A program made the translations under genes and the position numbers. From the NCBI GenBank assembly GCA_008632985.1, contig QPGO01000001.1:776404-840403 (forward strand): a stretch of 64,000 nucleotides of DNA, in the 5' to 3' direction. Position 1 is the stretch's first letter; each line of letters begins with the position of its first letter. This document shows positions 24,631 to 35,949 of the stretch, in pieces. Origin of the DNA: Psammoneis japonica. Its lineage: Eukaryota. The notes under the pieces were generated by a model. The model had not been told where the DNA came from. It did not search any database and was given only the letters and a program-made list of their open reading frames with translations.

Positions 24631-24970
24631 GTCGCAAGGTGCAGGGACGGAGAACGGGAGGTCGTCATGGTCAAGTCATCAAAACGTGTGTTTTTGTGCG
24701 AAGAAAAGAGCTGCCAAAAGTGCGTTTCCGCACCCTCGGAGTTTGGAGGTCAGAGTTTTAGGGGAGCTGTGGAATGAGGATTTTCACTTGTGGACACACA
24801 CATCCATGTGTGTGTTGACATTGAAACTCAACGGACGGCAAAGCCGTGCACGCGCAACCACGAACACACGCACAGCTCCCCTGCCACAGGGGTGCATTTG
24901 TTCGTTCTTCGAGCACAGTGCAGCCCAGCGCCGGCCACCCTTGCAGCATCTCCAGTGGGAGCACTGTCTG

Positions 24971-27661
24971 GCAGCTCCCAAAAGTCTGCCCAACGTAGAC
25001 GCCCATAGACTTGTGCTGGTTTTTTGTCAAAAGTCTGCCCGTTCGGAATGCACCGGAGGCATGCAAACAGCAGCAAAGTTGTTTTTGCTGTTGAAAAATC
25101 TCGACACCAAAAATGCTTGTCAAAAATTGGCTTTCGTCAGTCACTGAAACACACCCAGTTGAAGTGACTGACGAAAGCCTTTTTTCGACATCTTCAGTTG
25201 TAAGAGCTGCAGAGCAAGAGCAAAGCACAGAAACAAGGTGTCCCACAAGTGATTTGCACAGCATGCAATCCTGCATGAGATTTCGGAACTCCGGATTAAA
25301 TGTCAAATTTATGATGCGACTAATGTTTGTACACAAACACAAAAATCAATTAGAAAAAGGCGAGTGCAACCGTCATTTTTCCTCAAATGAATGCCAAATT
25401 TTCAACGACAAACATTCACTTTCCATCAGGAATCCTTTGTCGACTTCAACTGCATGCCCAAACGGAACTTGATCAAGAATCTTTGTCACCATTGTCTGTG
25501 CCGGGTCGCTGATGCCACCAGGGTGTCCTCTTGGTGTTGACTTGTGCCATGTTGTTCCAATTGGATCTGAACCCACTGGCCACTTTGCAGTTGATCCATG
25601 CTTGCATGCCAAAAACAACACAGAGTTCACCATTTTCATTGATGCATTTTGGGCACCTTCTTCAGTTGCGTCTAGAAGCATGAAGATGAGGGCATGACCA
25701 AATTTGCGAATCACACTCACAGGATGTGCTCGCAACATTTGACTCCGTGTTGGTGTTGGAAAGAGGCGAGCAAGTGCATCGTTCAACAGGTTTGCCCAAC
25801 CATGTGCCATGTCAGAGACTAGACCCAGTGCCCGCATGCCAAACAAAGGACAAATTTGTCACATGGTAAATCCGCAATGAGCGTGCACATTGTAGACAAG
25901 CCACTCCATCTTCCAAGACAAGAGCCGTTTTTTCCCACTGCCCTCGCGGCTGCCGCCATGCTTCGGATCCACATTTTCATCCTCGGTTGAGTTCTCAAAA
26001 TTTTCACCATCACCCATTGAATCGTCCAGCGGCACACAGAATCTGACTCATTGCCACTCTCCCGCACTGCTCTGTCTCTCTCACGATTTGCGTTCCTTTC
26101 TTCCCAGCCGACCCTGGAGTGCCGTCTGACATTCTCACACAAGCCGTCGCCGGGATCGCATGCTTGCCACAATTGAGAAAGTCCAGGAAGGCTTGTTGCA
26201 TTTAAATGCAGGAAAGCAGGTGCAGTCCCCAACAACCCCCCCAATGAGCCTCCAGGCTTTAGATCATCACAAGAGAGAATTGTTTTTGTCGCCATGACAT
26301 TCTCCATGTTCTGATGTTTCAAGTGCAATTCGGAGTTCACCACACTTGATCTCCATCATAGCTTCCACCTCCTTGTTCCTTGTTGGTGCACTTTCAAGCT
26401 TTGCCTTTGCAAGCCGGAGTTCCTCCTTGATGCGCTCATGCTCTTCCGGGTCAACCGCCTGACATTTGTGCCGTTGGTTGTCGTTGCCGGTTGCCAGAGT
26501 TCATTTTGAATCCGACTTTTGGCGTCATTAATTGCATGGAGTGGCTGCCTGTTTCCTGCTTGTGTGGCTGCCATCTTGGATGCCCAACCCGGCAATGCAT
26601 TGCCTGTGGCAGCGCAACTCCTTCCATGACCAAGTGATGGGTTCCTCACTTCGTTGATGTGTTCTTGCGGATTGCAATTTGGAGGCGGGAACGGATGCAC
26701 AAATTTGTCTCCATCTCAATGTTCTTTATGGCCCTGAATCTTCCATCTCCCATCTTCTCCATGACACCGGTTGTGGCGGTGCAGGTGCCAAGGGGCATGT
26801 CGCAACGCATCTGCATTCTCCAGCAACTTTTTGATGGTTTTGTTTGAAACTCCCATCTTTCGCAAGAATGGCTTTTTGTCTGCAAGGCCGGTGGGAAGAC
26901 GAAACATGCCAAAATGAGAGCACCCAACACCCTCACAGATTGGGCAGGAACTCGGGCCCAAGAAGCAGATGGCCGCGTCGCCCCTTTTCTTTCGGCTTTC
27001 CTTTCCTGTCGGTCAAACGAGGACACCAAGAATGGCCATGAACAACACAGCATCCCTGATTTTGACAGACCGCCGGGTAAATGCAATTGCTGTCACCTCT
27101 TGTACCCTTGCAAGGGGACTTGCTGAATGACACCAAGTCCAGTGCACCTTCAGGCACACCAAGAGCTTTTGCCAGCTCTGCGCGAGACCCAACGGAGCTG
27201 AAGTTGACAATGCTCATTCTTTTGCAACACACAAAGACGTGTTGTGTGAAATGTGTTCTGCAGCAAGGCGGTGATTGGTCTTCGAGATAGATGTGTTGTT
27301 GATGTCCATTGCTGCTGGTGTTATGCGATTTCATGGCGGACGCAGGGAGAGTTCCAACAAAAAATTCTGCCCAATTTCCGCTTGACGTACAGTCTGTCCG
27401 TACCCAGGCAAAAATCTTGAAATGAAGAAAGGTCTATTTTTGCACTTTTCTACGTGATTTTTTGTGTAGAATTCGTACGACGGAAATCAAACCGAATGTC
27501 TCACGAGCCAGCGGCCTTTTTGGGATTTGTTGCGTACACAATGTACCAGATTCTCGTATGTAGATACAAAGGTAGAAAAGACAAACAAACATACCGGGAA
27601 CTTCAGTAAAATTCTACGTAATCGGGCAGATTTTTGTCGCGGGCAGACTTTTGGGAGCTGC
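24971..27661 (-). mobile_element. ISL2EU/PIF-Harbinger-type DNA transposon, ~2.7 kb, non-functional
   Basis: Perfect 21-bp TIRs GCAGCTCCCAAAAGTCTGCCC (24971-24991 and 27641-27661), subterminal TCTGCCC repeats and an internal transposase remnant. Flanks are TG (left) and TA (right). Confidence 0.9.
25373..27334 (-). pseudogene. Degenerate transposase (THAP-like N-terminus plus DDE_Tnp_4 core)
   Basis: LLDATE...ACKHGSTAK.PVGSDPIG...GHPGGISD...VEVDKGF matches the ISL2EU pattern DCTE/YKH.T.K/Y.G.ISD/ADKGF with Y->C/H. CPICEGVGC..FRLP lies upstream. Confidence 0.85.
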
Positions 27662-27877
27662 TACTAGCTAGGCGCAGGCATCGAGCGACAGAGGGCAATC
27701 GTCGCGTCGGCGATGATTGATGCGCAGCGCCGCGAAGTGAAAGGTGATTATTGTTAGTCTACCGGTAGAGCCCTATTTGTGTGTTTGGTTGATGAAATGC
27801 ATGATTGTCATAGTAGACGTCTAGCTTTCGCACTCTTCTGGACAATTCTTCTCCTCGAGGAGTCTCTTGCCTCAATC

Positions 27878-28458
27878 ATGAGAATGAAGCAACTTCACGT
27901 TGGATCGAAAATCCCTTCCTCACCAGCAACGCTTCGCACCCTGGATGGAACTGAGGTGCCGTTAAACGGCGATGAAAACCCACTGTAGTATGTTTTCTTC
28001 GTCATTTGGCCTGACTCCCGTGACAAGATCACGCTCGAGCCCTCTTGTCGCAGCTTGAGCATCTCCGCGATGACTGTCGGATCATTTTTGTATCCTACTG
28101 CGATCCCTCCAAGCAACTCCATCGAATGTGGATTGAAGAGTGGTGTAATAATAACATTGACGGTACCTCGGCCATTCTTGTGCTAGATCCAACAAAAAGT
28201 GCCTATGAATCTTGGTCGATACCATCGAGCACAGTTGCAGCCTATGGGATAGCTAACGTTTGGTATTACACAAAGGCCATACTTTGCTGTCGGAGACGAT
28301 CTATTGCCGTCCGAGGCGAAGCTGGTCAATTGGGAGCGGACTTTGTCACCGCCGGAGGAACAGTTTTACTCCAACATTATTGCAAAAACCCAACAGATCG
28401 AATTCATGTTTCAAAAATTGTGGATGCAGTTAGCGGTTATCTTCGTAAGCACGAATAA
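27878..28458 (+). CDS. SELENOL: Selenoprotein L-like AhpC/TSA (thioredoxin-fold) protein with UxxU motif
   Basis: The frame of ORF 28045-28458 extends upstream as KPTVVCFLRHLA-TGA(28012)-LP-TGA(28021)-QDHARALL. It joins MRMKQLHVGSKIP...TLRTLDG if one A is restored in the run 27975-27978. Downstream AhpC/TSA-like motifs are LDPTKSAY, QLGADFV and PTDR. A SECIS candidate lies in the 3' UTR. Confidence 0.85.
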
Positions 28459-28497
28459 GCGAATGAAATACAAAGAATCGCCAGATCGACACGTTTT

Positions 28498-28575
28498 GTT
28501 CAGGGGGTACTTTGGAATGACAGTTCTGCACGCAACATGTCCATCAGAACTTGAATCAACAATGGTCCTTGGATG
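28498..28575 (+). promoter_or_regulatory. Candidate SECIS element
   Basis: ATGAC (28517-28521), AGTTCTG, AA (28534-28535), CAGAACT, TGAA (28552-28555). This gives a GA/GA core, a perfect 7-bp helix and an AA 12 nt after the core. It lies about 60 nt after the stop codon. Confidence 0.7.
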
Positions 28576-29092
28576 GAGCCTGCCCCTCTTGAATATCTTT
28601 GTTTTACCAAGTCAGGTAGATGGATCTTTGTTTTAAGTATTATGTTCAGTTTGGTTTCATGTGGCAACAGCCTTCGTTTACAGCAGCCGCCCTTAAGCCA
28701 ATCCACCAGTGTTTTCTCCTTCTTATTCATGCTCCCCCTTTTTATACTGTCTTTGTGGACAGTGATGGTGACTACTTGTATATAAATACACGTTACGGTA
28801 GAGATAGATCCAACATGGATAGGCCTGTATAGGATAGGAATACAACTTTTCATAATGATTGCCAATCCAGACATCATCTATTTAGAAACAAAGTTTTTTG
28901 CTCTCCTTACGCTCTTTTCACGTTTATCGATCTTTGATTCCAGGTGTCGCATTGCGAAAGTCCCGACCGCTGAAAACACCGCAACTGGATGATGCCCGAA
29001 CTCACAGACAATCAGCACAAATTTCATTTCACCAAACTTCATCATCTCTGCATAGTCGATCGACCCAATTAATTAATTCAACAAAGAGTCGC

Positions 29093-29631
29093 CTAGTCTT
29101 TTCTTCCAATGATCCATCTACCCCATCGGCGATACCACACATTGCGTTGTTCTCGTTCCTTTTTTCTTCGTTCCAAAATTTCCTCCGGTCGCTCGATACG
29201 CTTCGTATTATCAAAATCTTGTTTTCGAATCTTCGAAAGCTTAGCCATCATGTCTTCTTGTTCTTTTCCATTCGGGCTTGTCGTTCCGATCTGTGAGAAG
29301 GAAAATGTTACAAAAACAAAAGATGAGATTTACACGTGTTATTGGAACCTGTATACAAACCGCAACATGGCAACGACTGTATGCACCACAATGCTTACTT
29401 TGAAACATGGCCCTTGGATGCTTCGTATTCCCTGGTTTTACCTTCAAGGGCATTCTTGAGGACATATGCAGCACCGACACTAAACAGCACTAACGGCAAC
29501 CCCGCCTTGACAAACAATTGAGCCGAAGTTGGCGCGCTTTTCTCAGAAGAAGAACTAAAGTTTCTGCGACTCAACTGTGATACAGACCCCGCTCTTCTTA
29601 ACAACACGAGTCGGCCGTAAGCACTCATCAT
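29093..29631 (-). CDS. COX16: Cytochrome c oxidase assembly factor COX16-like, two exons
   Basis: Mitochondrial presequence-like N-terminus and GLPLVLFSVGAAYVL TM segment. Intron 29398-29291 (GTAAG...CAG). Exon 2 reads ...QDFDNTKRIERPEE...GRKD* if one base is restored in the T run near 29264-29267. Confidence 0.75.
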
Positions 29632-29717: not shown

Positions 29718-32700
29718 CTATGTAGAGCGGAAGGCAACAGCAGAGGGAGGCACGGAGGTAGCTGTAGAGACGGTAGAGTAAAAAGGTCGATGGACGCAAG
29801 ACGAAGGGCGTTTTGTGGAAGGTATGGGTGAGGAGGGGGCAGGGAGAGAGGAGGTGAATCGGAGGATGTGCGTAGAAAGGTGAAGAACAACGTTGTAGCC
29901 AAGAGTTTGGGTGGCCCACTGGGATGGGGTGGCTGTACGGTAGGTGTTTCCAAAGCGATCGGCGGACAGGCGACGCCATGCGGAGTCAGCAGAGGGAAGG
30001 ATTGCAGACGGAGATGACAAAGCGTAGAGGAAGGCGGAGTAGGAGGCATCGGAGTGACGAAGGTCAGAGGAAGAGGACCAGGGTGGCTTGGGCTGAGAGC
30101 AAACAGAGGGGGATGTAGAACCAAAGAGCAAGCGGTGGGCAAAGCAGCCGAGACCACCAAGGTGATCTACAGTGAAGGGGAGTGGAAAGATGCCATTGTT
30201 GTCAAGCGAAGAAACAACAAGGGATCCATCGGCAGAGGAAGTAGAGGGGCCAAGAAACTTCAATCTCGCGCTCGAGTGGTGTGCCTCAGTTAAGATAGGA
30301 GAAGAGGGGGCAGGCAGACCTGGAGGAGGGCGAGAGGAAGCTTGAGGGACGGTGACGTCCACTGCAATGTAGTGATGGCGGGAGGGAGCGGAAAGGGAGG
30401 CGGGAGGGGGGATTGAAATGCCGACATCGGCGGGACGGAGAAGCGGGCGGGTGGGGAGTAGGTTGGTGGGTTCAAGATGAACGTCATTGGGGGATCGACA
30501 GAACTCTGCAAGAGGACCCAAAGTTTGGGCTAGGATGAAAACAGTGTCACGGAGACCATTGGAAAGCTTGGACTTGTGAGCACGGCGGCAAGAAAAGGCA
30601 TGATCACCGTAGGCATCCAGAATGGCATGGCCACAGGGACAGGGAGTGTTGACAAGGGACGGAGGAAGGATGGGGAGACGAAGCTTACGAAGGGCGGCAA
30701 CAGCGCAGGCGTCCGAAGAAAGGCGGGAGCTTGGAAAGCGACGAGAGAAGGAATGAAGAGGGAGGCTTGTAAGCGGAGACAGCAATGAAGGGAGTGAAGA
30801 TTGCACGTCGTAAGATGAGTTAGCAAGGATGGAGGTCACTGCTTGTTGCTGATGTTCATGGTAGAGACGACGGGCCAGACCGGGGAGAGTGGCCGATTTA
30901 ACCAGGGCAGCCAAGGAAGAAGAGGAAAGGGTAGAGGCGGAAGCCAGAACGGGAGCATGACGGCGGAAGAGCGCACAGAGTCGCAGGGAAGAGCGAGGGT
31001 TGGACCAGGAAGACAGGGAGAGCCGAAAGCAGCGCGGAAGGGAAACAGAAGCGCCAGATGGCAGGCTGACACCGTGCGAAGCAAAGCGGAACGAGCGGAG
31101 AAGCGACACCAAGAAGGAAGGAATGGCGGCAGCTGTTGGGTCCCGGAGACCAAACCCGCCTGAGGAGGCAGGAAGGAAGGCGATGGCAATGGAGTGGTCG
31201 GGAAAAGGAGCGGCGAAGGAAGTGACGTAGTGTAGAAAGCGGTGAGCAACGGTGAGGAGGAAATCTTGAAACAGAGAGGTCCAGAGAAAGGGGTCGGGAG
31301 GATTGTCGGGGTCGAAGTTGTAGCAGAAGTCAGCTCCAAGGAGGTGAGCAGAGGATGGAACAAAACAGTGCTTGAAGAGTTGAGCCTGGGTTTGTTTGTC
31401 ATGGAGACGGGTGAGAAGCATGTCAACTTTGTCGGAGAGAGCAGAGGAAGTGTCGGAAAGGAAAGAGGTGGCAAAGTCGTGGGAGCCGAGGGGCTGTCCA
31501 AGGAAGCGAACACCAGAGGTGAGTTCGGGGTTGCAAGAGGGGTCACTGGCAGGGTTTAAGAAGGAAAGTGCAGCACGGAGAGAATCGGCGCAGGAAGGGG
31601 GAAGAGCAGGGATGGGGCTAATGCCGGCAATGGAGGTGAGGATCTTGGTTTTACGGAGGTTGAGGGAGATTCCGCAGGGGGCACCGAGGGCGGAGAAGCG
31701 TTCAAGGAACCATGGAAGCACGGAATGGGGAAGGAAAGCGTGAGCATCGTCAATGTAGGAGCCAACTGAGACAGAGGAACGGCCAGGAATACGTTCTTGA
31801 AGCTCTTGGTTAATCGGACGAAGAACCAGAGAGAGGACTGGGCTGGCGAAGACAGGGCCGAGAGGGCATCCTTGGGCAAATCCCTCTTCTTGAAGAAAGG
31901 AGCCCCAGGAAGAGTCGGGTCGGCGACACCAACATGCATTGGAACTTTGACACAGAAGGTCAAAAAAAGGAAGCAGAGGATGGAAGGCAGGGGTGGAGGT
32001 GAGAACGTGTCGACAGGCATCTCGAGATGCTTCGTTGAACATGTTGACGAGGTCAAGAAGAAGGAGAGCCTTGGCAGAGTCGGCAGAAGAAAGACACCGT
32101 TCAATGTTGGCAAGAGCAGAGTGAATGAGATAATCGAGGCCACCTTTGACACCAATGCCAAATTGACCATCTGGGAGGAGGCATTCGGCAAATGCAGAAC
32201 CAAAGAGAGTCATGACGACGGAGCTGGCAATGCGACGAAGAGCAGTGCCGACGCCAATGGGGCGAAGCTTGTTGAGGTCGCTGGCATCTTTGTGCAGAGC
32301 GACAAAGTGGTTCGAAGCAAATAAGGAATGGACGGAGGAAGGAATGGAGCCATGGAGTAGAAGAAGGACAAGCTCACGAAAGGATGACAAGTGGGGGCGT
32401 TGAGCAACACCTGTTGGGGTTTTGGTGGAATAGAGGGCGCAGGACTTGAAAAGGTCGGTAGAATCAGCAAAGACACCGGCAGCAGTCCCAGGCTTACATT
32501 TGGAGAGAGCGGAAAGAAGAGCATCGGAGGAGAGCTCAATGGGCTCATTATGAAGGGAGGAGGCCGAGCGAGTTGAAGGAGGATCAGGTGGATCGGAGGG
32601 GTGCAGGCGAGGAGGGTAGAGCTTGAGGATGGCAGGAAGGCGCTCAGGAGTGACGGCAGCAACAGGAAGCGCAGAGGTGAGCTTGGAGCAGGCCGAGTGA

Positions 32701-33449
32701 AAGTTGTCTTCGTTGGCGCAAACTTGAGCGGAGTGGCAACAGGTGGAAGCAGAAAAGTCGGGGGAAGATGAGGAGAGGCGTGGCGCATGGGAGCAGGCTT
32801 CGTGGTGGAGTTGGCGAATGCAGCCACGGCGGAAGAGGGACAAGCGGGAGGTGATGGCAGGGCCAAACTTGGAGCGTGGCGGGACAGGAGCAAGAATGAG
32901 AGCTTCAAAGAGTAAGAGCAGCTTCCAGAAGGGAGCAGAGTCACGTTGCCACGTAGGAATGAGGTGGGAGGGGTCAGAGAGAGGCTGGGAGGCGGCCAGT
33001 GCCCAGCTTGTCACATGATGAAGAGCAGAGCAGAGTTCCTTACGGGCGGAGGACGAGAGCTTGCTGCGACAGGAAGCTCGGAAAGGCGGAGGCTCGAGTG
33101 CAAGAGTGTGGAGCCATTGTAGCGAGGGGCCCCAGTCACCTAGATTGTGGAAGGACGAGAGAACAATGTCAGTGTCAAGGGAAGAGCGAGGAGCGAAGTG
33201 CTTGTTCTGCAAGTGATTGCGAAGGTGGGTGGTAGACAGGCAGGTGCATTGGCTGTGATTGCAATGCCTGCAGACATGTAAACCAGCGGCATCGAAGAAG
33301 GACGTAGGTACATGAGAAAGCGAGAGGCGGGGATGCTCCTGGCGAAGATGGCTACGTGTGGAAGCAGGAAGGGATGATGCATCAATGGAAGGAGGGGACC
33401 AGGAGCAGAAGGGGCAAGTTAGCGAGGCACGGGCTTCGGTGGGTTCCAC
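29718..33449 (-). CDS. ORF2: zinc fingers + reverse transcriptase + CCHC/RLE endonuclease
   Basis: RT motifs LRPIGVGTALRR, QFGIGVKGG, LDLVNMFN, QGCPLGP, YIDD, FLGQPLG and GGFGL. C-terminal CPCG..D.YGDHAFSC, RPADV and VDVTV. N-terminal CPFC..H..EH and CRHC..H..KH fingers. Confidence 0.93.
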   Translation of the reverse strand: MEPTEARASLTCPFCSWSPPSIDASSLPASTRSHLRQEHPRLSLSHVPTSFFDAAGLHVCRHCNHSQCTCLSTTHLRNHLQNKHFAPRSSLDTDIVLSSFHNLGDWGPSLQWLHTLALEPPPFRASCRSKLSSSARKELCSALHHVTSWALAASQPLSDPSHLIPTWQRDSAPFWKLLLLFEALILAPVPPRSKFGPAITSRLSLFRRGCIRQLHHEACSHAPRLSSSSPDFSASTCCHSAQVCANEDNFHSACSKLTSALPVAAVTPERLPAILKLYPPRLHPSDPPDPPSTRSASSLHNEPIELSSDALLSALSKCKPGTAAGVFADSTDLFKSCALYSTKTPTGVAQRPHLSSFRELVLLLLHGSIPSSVHSLFASNHFVALHKDASDLNKLRPIGVGTALRRIASSVVMTLFGSAFAECLLPDGQFGIGVKGGLDYLIHSALANIERCLSSADSAKALLLLDLVNMFNEASRDACRHVLTSTPAFHPLLPFFDLLCQSSNACWCRRPDSSWGSFLQEEGFAQGCPLGPVFASPVLSLVLRPINQELQERIPGRSSVSVGSYIDDAHAFLPHSVLPWFLERFSALGAPCGISLNLRKTKILTSIAGISPIPALPPSCADSLRAALSFLNPASDPSCNPELTSGVRFLGQPLGSHDFATSFLSDTSSALSDKVDMLLTRLHDKQTQAQLFKHCFVPSSAHLLGADFCYNFDPDNPPDPFLWTSLFQDFLLTVAHRFLHYVTSFAAPFPDHSIAIAFLPASSGGFGLRDPTAAAIPSFLVSLLRSFRFASHGVSLPSGASVSLPRCFRLSLSSWSNPRSSLRLCALFRRHAPVLASASTLSSSSLAALVKSATLPGLARRLYHEHQQQAVTSILANSSYDVQSSLPSLLSPLTSLPLHSFSRRFPSSRLSSDACAVAALRKLRLPILPPSLVNTPCPCGHAILDAYGDHAFSCRRAHKSKLSNGLRDTVFILAQTLGPLAEFCRSPNDVHLEPTNLLPTRPLLRPADVGISIPPPASLSAPSRHHYIAVDVTVPQASSRPPPGLPAPSSPILTEAHHSSARLKFLGPSTSSADGSLVVSSLDNNGIFPLPFTVDHLGGLGCFAHRLLFGSTSPSVCSQPKPPWSSSSDLRHSDASYSAFLYALSSPSAILPSADSAWRRLSADRFGNTYRTATPSQWATQTLGYNVVLHLSTHILRFTSSLPAPSSPIPSTKRPSSCVHRPFYSTVSTATSVPPSAVAFRST

Positions 33450-35098
33450 GAGGCGATGAGATCGCGGAGGGAGTCGACATCAGGGGCTGCAGCCCGGATG
33501 GCTTCTTCGTAGAAGGGTTGCCAGGTAGAAAGGCGGGCCGGGCAGCAAGCACCTACGAAGGCATCAAGGACATCCAAGAGTTCCATCTCGCGCTGGGACT
33601 GTTGGGGAGAAACCGAGTCATCAGATTCGGTCTGCACAATTGCATCGGGAGCGGTGGGGGGCGGAGAAGTCTGCAAAACTACAGCAGGAATGGCGGGGGG
33701 CGGAGAGAGAGCATCGGGAGAAGAGTGGGGACGTTTGGAGGGAGGAGGCTCGGTGGTGAGGGAGCGGGCTTGGGGAGGATGGGAGGAAGGAGATGCAGTA
33801 GCAGGGAGCGGATCTTGGGGCTTGGGGAGCTGCCAGTCTTGAGCAAGCAGCTCAAGGGCATGACACGAGAAAGAATCTCGAGAGGGAGCGGGCGGCTGAA
33901 GAGCAGCAGAGGCATAGGATGGGGAAGTCACACTGTGGTCATGAGTAGATTCCGCCACAGAGGTGAGGAGATCCAAGGGAAAGCCGGGATAGTTGTGTGG
34001 GTTGGCATCCACAAGGGCAATTGTGCACGGAGACGGGAAAAAGAGCAGCTTGTACTTGATTGGGAGGGAGTCATGAGCAGAGAAGATGGGGATGAGGGAG
34101 CGAAGATTGGTTGTAGCAAGGAGACGACTGATGCCAGGTTGGGTGAGAGGAAGAAGAAGACGGTCAGAGATAACCACTTTCATGTTGCTCTGACGCAAAA
34201 TGAGCTTGGAGAGGGCGCCACAGGTGGAAGCAAAGTTGGCCGGGGCTGGGAAGGGAATGATGGTGGCAGAGGTCCCCAGGATGGAGAAGGAGGCAGGCGG
34301 CGCATTAGATGGATTAGTGACATGAAGCAGGGTGTTCCAGACGGCATCGGAGGCAGTGGAAATGTAAAAAACCGGAAGAGAGCGGCGTCGCGCCTGGGCC
34401 GAGTTAGCAGGGTGTTGCGAAGGACGAATTCCAACGAGATTAAGAAAGGCAGGACAGTCTCGGAAGGATTGGAGGATGGGATTGGTCGCAGTGCTGGAGA
34501 TCTTGCCAACAAGGAAGGAACAAAGGCGGGATAGAGGAAACTCAGAAGTGCGTCGAGAAGAACCGTAGAGGGTTGAAGAGGGGCCAGCAAGGATGCCATG
34601 AGCCTTTTCTTTGAAAGAGTTGCAGGCCGGGATCATAAAGGCACAGTGCCGAGCCCAAGGATTGTCCACAGCCGAAACCGGAGAGAAGTCAGGGTGGAGA
34701 AAATTGGAAGGGGAGCCAGCGGAGCGGAAGGGGGTTAAGTGCAACGTAGGGTGTAGATGCCATTTCTGCAGGAGAAAGGAGAGCGCTTGGCTGCGGAAGG
34801 ATTCGAAGGAAAAGGTGGTGCCATCGGGGGTCACCGGGTGAAGAGCAACGTGAAAGTAGGACGCCCACTGATTCTGGTGAGGATGGGAGCGCTTCTTGGT
34901 TTCGGCAAGCGTCACAGAGCCAAGAGTGAGGAGGAGCGGAGAGACGCGCCGACTGTGATGCTCTAGCGTCTTAAGAATGATGTCGCGAATGACATCAGAC
35001 ATGAGAGCAATGGCAGGCACGTCAGGCAGGTCAGCAGGATGAAGGACCTGAGCTAAAAGCTTGACATCAGCGGGAGGAGCGGAGGCGAGAGCAGACAT
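33419..35098 (-). CDS. ORF1 of the non-LTR element (unknown function)
   Basis: Open from MSALASAPP (35098) to the stop at 33419, overlapping the ORF2 start by 31 nt, with the same strand composition bias as ORF2. Confidence 0.7.
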   Translation of the reverse strand: MSALASAPPADVKLLAQVLHPADLPDVPAIALMSDVIRDIILKTLEHHSRRVSPLLLTLGSVTLAETKKRSHPHQNQWASYFHVALHPVTPDGTTFSFESFRSQALSFLLQKWHLHPTLHLTPFRSAGSPSNFLHPDFSPVSAVDNPWARHCAFMIPACNSFKEKAHGILAGPSSTLYGSSRRTSEFPLSRLCSFLVGKISSTATNPILQSFRDCPAFLNLVGIRPSQHPANSAQARRRSLPVFYISTASDAVWNTLLHVTNPSNAPPASFSILGTSATIIPFPAPANFASTCGALSKLILRQSNMKVVISDRLLLPLTQPGISRLLATTNLRSLIPIFSAHDSLPIKYKLLFFPSPCTIALVDANPHNYPGFPLDLLTSVAESTHDHSVTSPSYASAALQPPAPSRDSFSCHALELLAQDWQLPKPQDPLPATASPSSHPPQARSLTTEPPPSKRPHSSPDALSPPPAIPAVVLQTSPPPTAPDAIVQTESDDSVSPQQSQREMELLDVLDAFVGACCPARLSTWQPFYEEAIRAAAPDVDSLRDLIASWNPPKPVPR

Positions 35099-35949
35099 GA
35101 TCAAGCGAGAAGAGAAAGTTGCAGAGAGTCGTTGTTGTGTGCGGATCGCCAAAAACAGCGACAAGGTCACAGAACGTGTAGAAAGATAGGAGGAGGGAAG
35201 GTGAGGGCATGACGTGGGCAATCGTGCACGAACGATCGTAGAGGATGCATGGAAACACAGGGAGGAAGGCACAAGCAGAAGCGCGAAGGGAGTCATGGAA
35301 GAGAAAGGGGCAGCAGAGAGGGCCGAAGGGCAGAGGAAGCTGTAGAGGAGCACGGAAGCAATCGTGTTCGAAGGGGCGTAGAAAGGCATGTGGAACGACA
35401 GGAGAGGAGTCACAACTAAAGGCGCAAAGGGAGTCATGGGAGGAAGGGGGGCAATTGAAGGGGTTGCTGGAGGAGGAAATGGGGAAGAGGTCAGGGGGGC
35501 AGAGAGGGGCCACAGGGAAAAGAAACGAACAAGGCAGAGAAGGAGAGGGGGCACAAGGAAGAGCAGAAAGGGAAATGGCAGGGGGCAGTTGTTGGGGTGA
35601 AGAAAGGGAGTGAAGAAAAGTGGAAGGGCAATGGAGTGAGCAGTTGGAAGGGCAATTGGCAATCGTGGAAACTGGGGGCCAGTAGAAGGGGCGTAGAAAT
35701 GTACAGGCGAAAGGAGCGAAGGGAGTGACCAAAAGGGAATGAAGAAAGGAGACGATGGCAAAGGCAAGAACGGCAGGGAAAAGGATCCGCAAAAAGAAGG
35801 ATGGCCATGGCGGAGGGTCGGGAGGCCACTTCGGGAGGTGCAGCAAAGAGCCACTGCATCCATCATGGGACGCCATCGCCACACGAATTGCCATTGTTTC
35901 AGTCTCATTCAACGAGAACGCCATCTACACATGCTGTGCAAGCACTTGC

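Follow-up and report, generated by a model that had tools for sequence, protein, structure and literature searches.

The window, by which we mean the whole 64-kb stretch of DNA analyzed here, has a G+C content of ~49% and encodes eukaryote-type domains (FG-GAP, VWD, RDD, and reverse transcriptase); no tRNA genes were identified in the 64 kb. The gene considered here lies, with all its parts, on the forward strand. Its main coding segment (27976–28455; 160 codons) follows the frame of position 27880, encodes a peroxiredoxin (Prx)-like domain, and has 54–70% identity to 13 homologs. This frame reads KPTVVCFLRHLA-TGA-LP-TGA-QDHARALL... and, except for both TGAs, is open up to a TAA stop codon (28456–28458), with TAA also present at the equivalent place in homologous loci; the remaining two frames across the gene stretch contain many stops. 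The in-frame TGAs, at 28012–28014 and 28021–28023, would specify the first and second selenocysteine (Sec) of a U-L-P-U motif. Each is TGA in five metagenome loci that encode a relative (L001–L005), unaltered in contigs built from sequencing reads, and opposite Cys in 35 of the 64 rows of the family alignment (see below). The original prediction, made from the letters of this DNA, held that FLRHLA-TGA-LP-TGA-QDH occurs in a frame that stays open to 28458; the motif is present, the two TGAs are the sole interruptions before the TAA, and the observation of a two-TGA gene is thereby confirmed. TGA is absent from the Pfam-supported ORFs of 749, 734, and 1243 codons in the window, and is therefore not a general sense codon here.

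The N-terminal part of the gene is one frame away. From the ATG at 27878, that frame reads MRMKQLHVGSKIPSSPATLRTLDGTEVPLNGDENPL and then reaches a stop; its coding segment (27878–27976; MRMKQLHVGSKIPSSPATLRTLDGTEVPLNGDE) corresponds in alignment to KVGSKVP...IPL in L003 and L005, and to LHVGS...VPL in the database protein P0001. One base added in the run gaaaaccc (27974–27981) would therefore join both parts, and the spacing of L003, L005, and P0001 requires exactly one more base in the window. The run is also one base short relative to contigs from two sequencing runs, X1 and X2, that cover the frameshift site (three sequencing runs were considered, from one sample and one study and with none recorded as RNA; the third, X3, yielded no contig here): an A inserted behind 27974 is present in the contig of X1 (845 nt, depth 47.6 of 47.6) and in that of X2 (607 nt, depth 50.5 of 50.5). 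With the A-run thus extended to five, the frames are joined as ...GDE-K-PTVVCFLRHLA.... The prediction of a hidden gene, made from sequence alone, had called for one base to be restored at 27975–27978, and was right even as to the exact missing base. A candidate intron at 27956–27988 (GT..AG, 33 nt) was rejected as a means of joining the frames, because removal of 33 nt, a multiple of three, would leave the frame unchanged.

Compared with the read contigs over 1 kb (27700–28700), the window is without a base at six of six indel sites (27734, 27739, 27974, 28471/73, 28531/32, and 28597/600) and in no case carries an additional base; at two of the six, both read alleles carry the extra base. That the indels are all one-sided, with the window the shorter, indicates deletion errors of the window's assembly. 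There are also seven substitution sites between 27898 and 28185, which leave both TGAs untouched; with the codons read by hand, four are synonymous and three are at positions that vary among homologs. The one-base break is thus most likely an assembly deletion error, or else a defect confined to this haplotype, and no feature of the gene. The same kind of false frameshift may affect other genes of the assembly. Across 28444–28692, the reads resolve into two alleles of comparable depth (33.1 and 35.7 in X1). The window matches neither exactly and resembles a mosaic of both from which bases are missing.

Upstream of 27878, an in-frame ATG at 27797 is followed by MHDCHSRRLAFALFWTILLLEESLASI (27797–27877), a possible signal-peptide leader, the frame being open from 27797 to 27878. 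The mean Kyte-Doolittle hydropathy of its most hydrophobic 11 residues is 2.48, and equivalent in-frame leaders in L003 and L005 have 11-residue means of 2.91 and 2.46, respectively; a hydrophobic leader therefore precedes the conserved Met in all three genomic sequences (the window, L003 2309–2392, and L005 2318–2404). The earlier placement of the start at 27878 is corrected to this extent, that the ATG at 27797 lies upstream of it and adds the leader. Judging from these sequences, the encoded protein probably carries a predicted signal peptide. The leader of L005 ends in ...LLLLNAG-FASSE, a sequence possibly similar to the cleavage motif of plastid-type signals in diatoms.

A SECIS-like stem-loop is predicted at 28495–28577, downstream of the TAA. 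Its helix I would pair ~28495–28514 with ~28557–28577, and its helix II 28522–28528 with 28545–28551; its other elements are ATGA (28517–28520), AA (28534–28535), and TGA (28552–28554). The hairpin foreseen at 28517–28555 is therefore present, with the helix II pairs between the core elements. In all three distinct 3'UTRs (window, L003, and L005), the core takes the form GGAATGACAG...CTTGAA with 20–45 nt between, beginning 58, 62, and 46 nt after the stop codon, respectively, and the hairpin is the only conserved 3'UTR element. The composite motif GGAATGACAG-N20-45-CTTGAA occurs once in the 64-kb window, with both strands counted, against 0.01 expected (a match was obtained in 1 of 100 shuffles), and once in each of five out of five loci. 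Helix II is changed on both sides between the elements (AGTTCTG/CAGAACT, AGCAGTG/CAC-T-TGCT, and AGCGG/CCGCT), and a lower stem is formed in all three from unrelated sequences. The usual ATGA-to-AA spacing of SECIS elements is about 10–13 nt; here, the window has its AA 14 nt after the ATGA, and the distance is greater still for L003 and L005.

For L003 and L005, the folded element is more stable than its shuffles (z −2.62 and −3.50, respectively). The window element shows no such excess of stability (z +0.85 for 28495–28590, with 160 of 200 shuffles as good; z −0.55 for 28495–28579); the read-supported alleles, each with one more base in the apical part, reach z −1.72 and −1.90 against mononucleotide shuffles. 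MAFFT alignment of the three hairpins misplaces the 3' half of the window element, and only the L003 and L005 hairpins were used to build a covariance model. This model gave no match under default filters; with filters off, 28498–28574 was first of eight matches in 128 kb, at a weak score (12.2 bits, E 0.55) and exactly where a SECIS is expected. Rfam SECIS families gave no match at E up to 10 in 27500–29500, nor in the 3'UTRs of the window, L003, and L005 alone; we read this as low sensitivity for protist elements, because Rfam passed over even the elements of L003 and L005, which fold well. Taken on its conservation and covariation, rather than on a dedicated SECIS predictor, the element fits a candidate SECIS with an ATGA/TGA core. 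The proposal of a SECIS at this place is favored by an invariant core and by stems that covary in three of three elements; against it stand the E of 0.55, the lack of an Rfam SECIS match, and a window fold no better than shuffles.

A retroelement adjoins the gene (29718–35908, reverse strand), with ORFs of 1243 and 829 codons, the first of which matches RVT_1 at 38.8 bits; the surroundings of the retroelement show no long direct repeats. Strand skew is strong over 30–36 kb (GC skew about 0.4, AT skew 0.28–0.39). Among ORFs on both strands of 24758–29456, there is no Pfam match save a weak one to DDE_Tnp_4 (25373–25843, reverse strand; 16.8 bits vs. a cut-off of 24.8). A match resembling the C/D-box snoRNA SNORD43 lies at 29004–29050 on the reverse strand, far under the gathering score (20.3 bits vs. 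45; E 0.4).

A search of 5.8 billion proteins recovered 22 relatives among 75 candidates. In 20 of these 22, query coverage is at most 84%, and of 13 inspected homologs, 11 start after the motif and two read both TGAs as W. It had been anticipated that standard gene finders would truncate this gene, and these records bear that out. P0001 and P0006 cross the motif as LRHLA-W-LP-W-QDH, as a gene caller using TGA as Trp would write it. Two matches are from marine protist transcriptomes (MMETSP), and the MMETSP ORFs P0015 and P0019 are labelled “complete” from internal starts. The database protein P0002, a table-11 prediction, has only bacterial AhpC-TSA_2 clusters as neighbors in the ESM Atlas.

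Scanning of metagenome contigs gave 42 matched stretches, five of which encode a relative (L001–L005). L001–L004 are identical across the gene and L005 differs, so these represent two distinct sequences. Both have a single unbroken frame from ATG to TAA in which the two TGAs are kept, with the shared reading M...KVGSKVP...PTY(V/I)CFLRHLA-TGA-LP-TGA-QDH..., and the protein is conserved on both sides of the TGAs in these metagenome loci.

The 160-residue piece encoded in the window matches AhpC-TSA_2 (18.8 bits) and AhpC-TSA (17.6 bits) in Pfam, both below cut-off. Full-length L003 exceeds both cut-offs (AhpC-TSA 38.2 bits, cut-off 26; AhpC-TSA_2 30 bits, cut-off 27), L005 passes for AhpC-TSA (28.8 bits), and P0001 scores 36.8 bits for AhpC-TSA_2; P0006 reaches neither of these two Pfam cut-offs. 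For the L003 protein, AlphaFold run on a 28-row alignment gave a model with a pLDDT of 92.8 and a pTM of 0.89, whose matches in the PDB are BCP, ResA, peroxiredoxins, and AhpE (E about 3e-8 to 1e-7), as well as the C44S/C47S prostamide/prostaglandin F synthase (9usa; E 1e-7, TMq 0.62). This homolog is thus confidently modelled as having a peroxiredoxin/thioredoxin fold. In the L003 model, the two Sec sites are residues 48 and 51, between a strand (38–42) and a helix (49–59), at the start of helix 1, which is the classical CxxC position of the thioredoxin fold. The assignment of the TGAs to the CxxC position of an AhpC/TSA fold is therefore upheld, both by this placement at the junction of strand 1 and helix 1 and by C..C in 35 of the 64 aligned rows. 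A typical peroxiredoxin (AhpC/TSA) has a peroxidatic PxxxT/SxxC site, with Thr or Ser three residues before the Cys. The window protein shares the fold, but neither Sec has Thr or Ser three residues before it (the motif is H-L-A-U-L-P-U); the center would therefore be thioredoxin-like rather than a peroxidatic site.

To place the gene in its wider family, 1.84 billion representatives were searched with a profile, giving 338 matches at E ≤ 1e-3, 52 at ≤ 1e-10, and 5 at ≤ 1e-30. Alignment rows were taken from the matches listed and kept if both motif columns were filled and at least 130 of the 197 profile positions were covered, with shorter or partial sequences dropped. The 64 rows left, among the matches listed, comprise 35 with C..C, 21 of UxxU type, and 8 with other pairs; of the UxxU-type rows, 3 of 21 were seen as TGA in DNA and 18 of 21 are written W..W in database proteins. 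The expectation that homologs have Cys or Sec at both TGA positions is thus borne out by the 35 CxxC and 21 UxxU-type rows.

In a quick tree of these rows, the window's clade (5 rows, among the matches listed) has an SH-aLRT of 100, and a second UxxU clade (18 rows) an SH-aLRT of 97. The second clade holds proteins of 297–335 residues with LLRH(F/Y)A-W-LP-W-RDH and a long N-terminal extension; the profile matches such long W-LP-W proteins, P0036 among them at E about 1e-15. A constraint that unites the two UxxU clades, a grouping chosen after the tree was seen, improved the likelihood by +23.39 and is not rejected (p-AU 0.863). The tree needs five changes of the UxxU state, and its well-supported branches force at least two. 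The Cys forms P0040 and P0047 (C-L-L-C and C-L-F-C; 309–363 residues) branch within the long UxxU clade, which suggests that Sec was replaced by Cys at both sites there.

The reference for selenoprotein L (SelL, SELENOL) is reportedly the work of Shchedrina and co-workers from 2007 (PNAS 104:13919). The long-form W-LP-W proteins, whose database entries bear no family name, are presumably metazoan SelL. The long-form UxxU clade has an N-terminal extension of ~150 residues; the window's clade is without it, has a hydrophobic leader instead, and possesses invariants of its own (LDPTKS and YC(K/R)NPTDR). On sequence comparison, the gene belongs to a distinct protist clade. The Pfam family, the fold, and the CxxC-type center of the window protein are common to PRXL2/AhpC-TSA_2 (PF13911; SelU-type, prostamide/prostaglandin F synthase). 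SelU-type proteins carry one Sec; in contrast, the window gene has TGA at both positions. A bacterial-looking Cys form (P0035; IRHLACLPCQEH...HYCSRPDDRP, 181 residues) has a near-identical motif and equal length, but forms of this type have Cys at both sites where the window gene would have Sec.

In published descriptions, SelL has two Sec separated by two residues and a single SECIS, according to passages of two papers (PMC3316567; PMC4989117), and the taxa named for it in such passages are fishes and several invertebrates (PMC3316567; PMC4989117; PMC3473315). A section of a further paper calls SelL a Prx-like protein of aquatic organisms, and describes UxxU Prx-like sequences in ocean metagenomes (PMC2398784). 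SELENOL is named once among the thioredoxin-like selenoprotein families of algae, with no species given in the portion of text concerned (PMC7539508). The window gene resembles SelL in having two predicted Sec two residues apart, one candidate SECIS, and a Prx-like fold; the term “SelL-like” as used here refers to such features only, compared with SelL by description. Two further Prx-like proteins are described, in excerpts of their sources, as having two Sec in the redox box, the UxxU Prx-like 2 of the Global Ocean Sampling (PMC2398784) and the Lokiarchaeota PrxL.1 (PMC4989117); both are prokaryotic, with a SECIS of another type, and were set beside the window gene by description only.

The frameshift in the window as given could be real in the haplotype or strain, which would make this copy a true pseudogene or null allele with a working allele elsewhere in the species. 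The window also has seven substitutions relative to the only contig that covers 27700–28473, and no read contig listed has the window's own letters, such that the window haplotype was not seen intact. We nevertheless regard a null allele as improbable: one-sidedness at all six indel sites, with both read alleles longer at two of them, is the pattern of consensus deletion errors, and there is no further damage to the gene, in which the TGAs, the stop codon, and the hairpin core are intact. Much less credible still is that the TGAs are ordinary stops, so that translation would give either a short peptide from the N-terminal part or, from an internal start, a product of 137 residues (28045–28458). 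Against this, the protein is conserved in the same frame before and after the TGAs in four independent sequences, a structured element is conserved after the stop codon, and the shortened product would lose strands 1–3 and the whole redox motif; such a product is nonetheless what is recorded for 20 of the 22 database homologs, and what the “complete” labels of P0015 and P0019 imply.

It is exceedingly improbable that TGA has been reassigned to Trp or Cys, or that programmed −1 frameshifting links the frames, even though W stands at both sites in P0001 and P0006 and the two frames do differ by −1. Both proposals were rejected on the TGA-free long Pfam-supported ORFs, on the unbroken frames of L003 and L005 (which need no frameshifting), and on the extra base carried by the reads. 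A redox fold would hardly have W at its C-x-x-C position, and the W in the database proteins fits a code-4 gene call; GAT GAA AAC, read by hand, contains no X-XXY-YYZ slippery site.

We conclude that the locus is very probably a small SelL-like UxxU selenoprotein gene of a eukaryotic marine protist, with a Prx-like fold, one SECIS, and both UGAs read as Sec; the interpretation offered in the original prediction is thus supported. The product would comprise ~193 residues from the ATG at 27878, or ~220 residues from the ATG at 27797 with the hydrophobic leader, and in its peroxiredoxin-like thioredoxin fold the redox motif Sec-Leu-Pro-Sec would replace Cys-x-x-Cys. A single SECIS, ~58 nt past the TAA and 505 nt after the first UGA, would direct Sec insertion at both UGAs, with recoding of the SBP2 and eEFSec type served at both by this one element. 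Placed where helix 1 begins, the two selenols would then cycle between diselenide and selenol forms, such that the protein would function as an oxidoreductase, and the hydrophobic leader would permit entry to the secretory route.

More tentatively, and with the balance of our judgement somewhat against it, the window's clade might, within the SelL superfamily, be a protist (diatom-like) branch of its own: a short diselenide oxidoreductase with a signal peptide and an extra invariant Cys (YCKNPTDR), located in the secretory pathway or plastid, and not an ortholog of the animal protein, which is presumably cytosolic. If so, Sec and Cys would have been exchanged at both positions several times in the superfamily.

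The UxxU principle itself is not new, and SELENOL has already been named once for algae (PMC7539508). Selenoproteins of the UxxU type are rare, and the present case concerns a marine protist clade whose members are stored in large protein collections either in shortened form or with their Sec sites written as W; it also illustrates that one-base deletions in an assembly can break real genes. The SelL-like clade would provide a compact, intron-free, and probably secreted predicted diselenide protein in which two Sec may be tested against two Cys.
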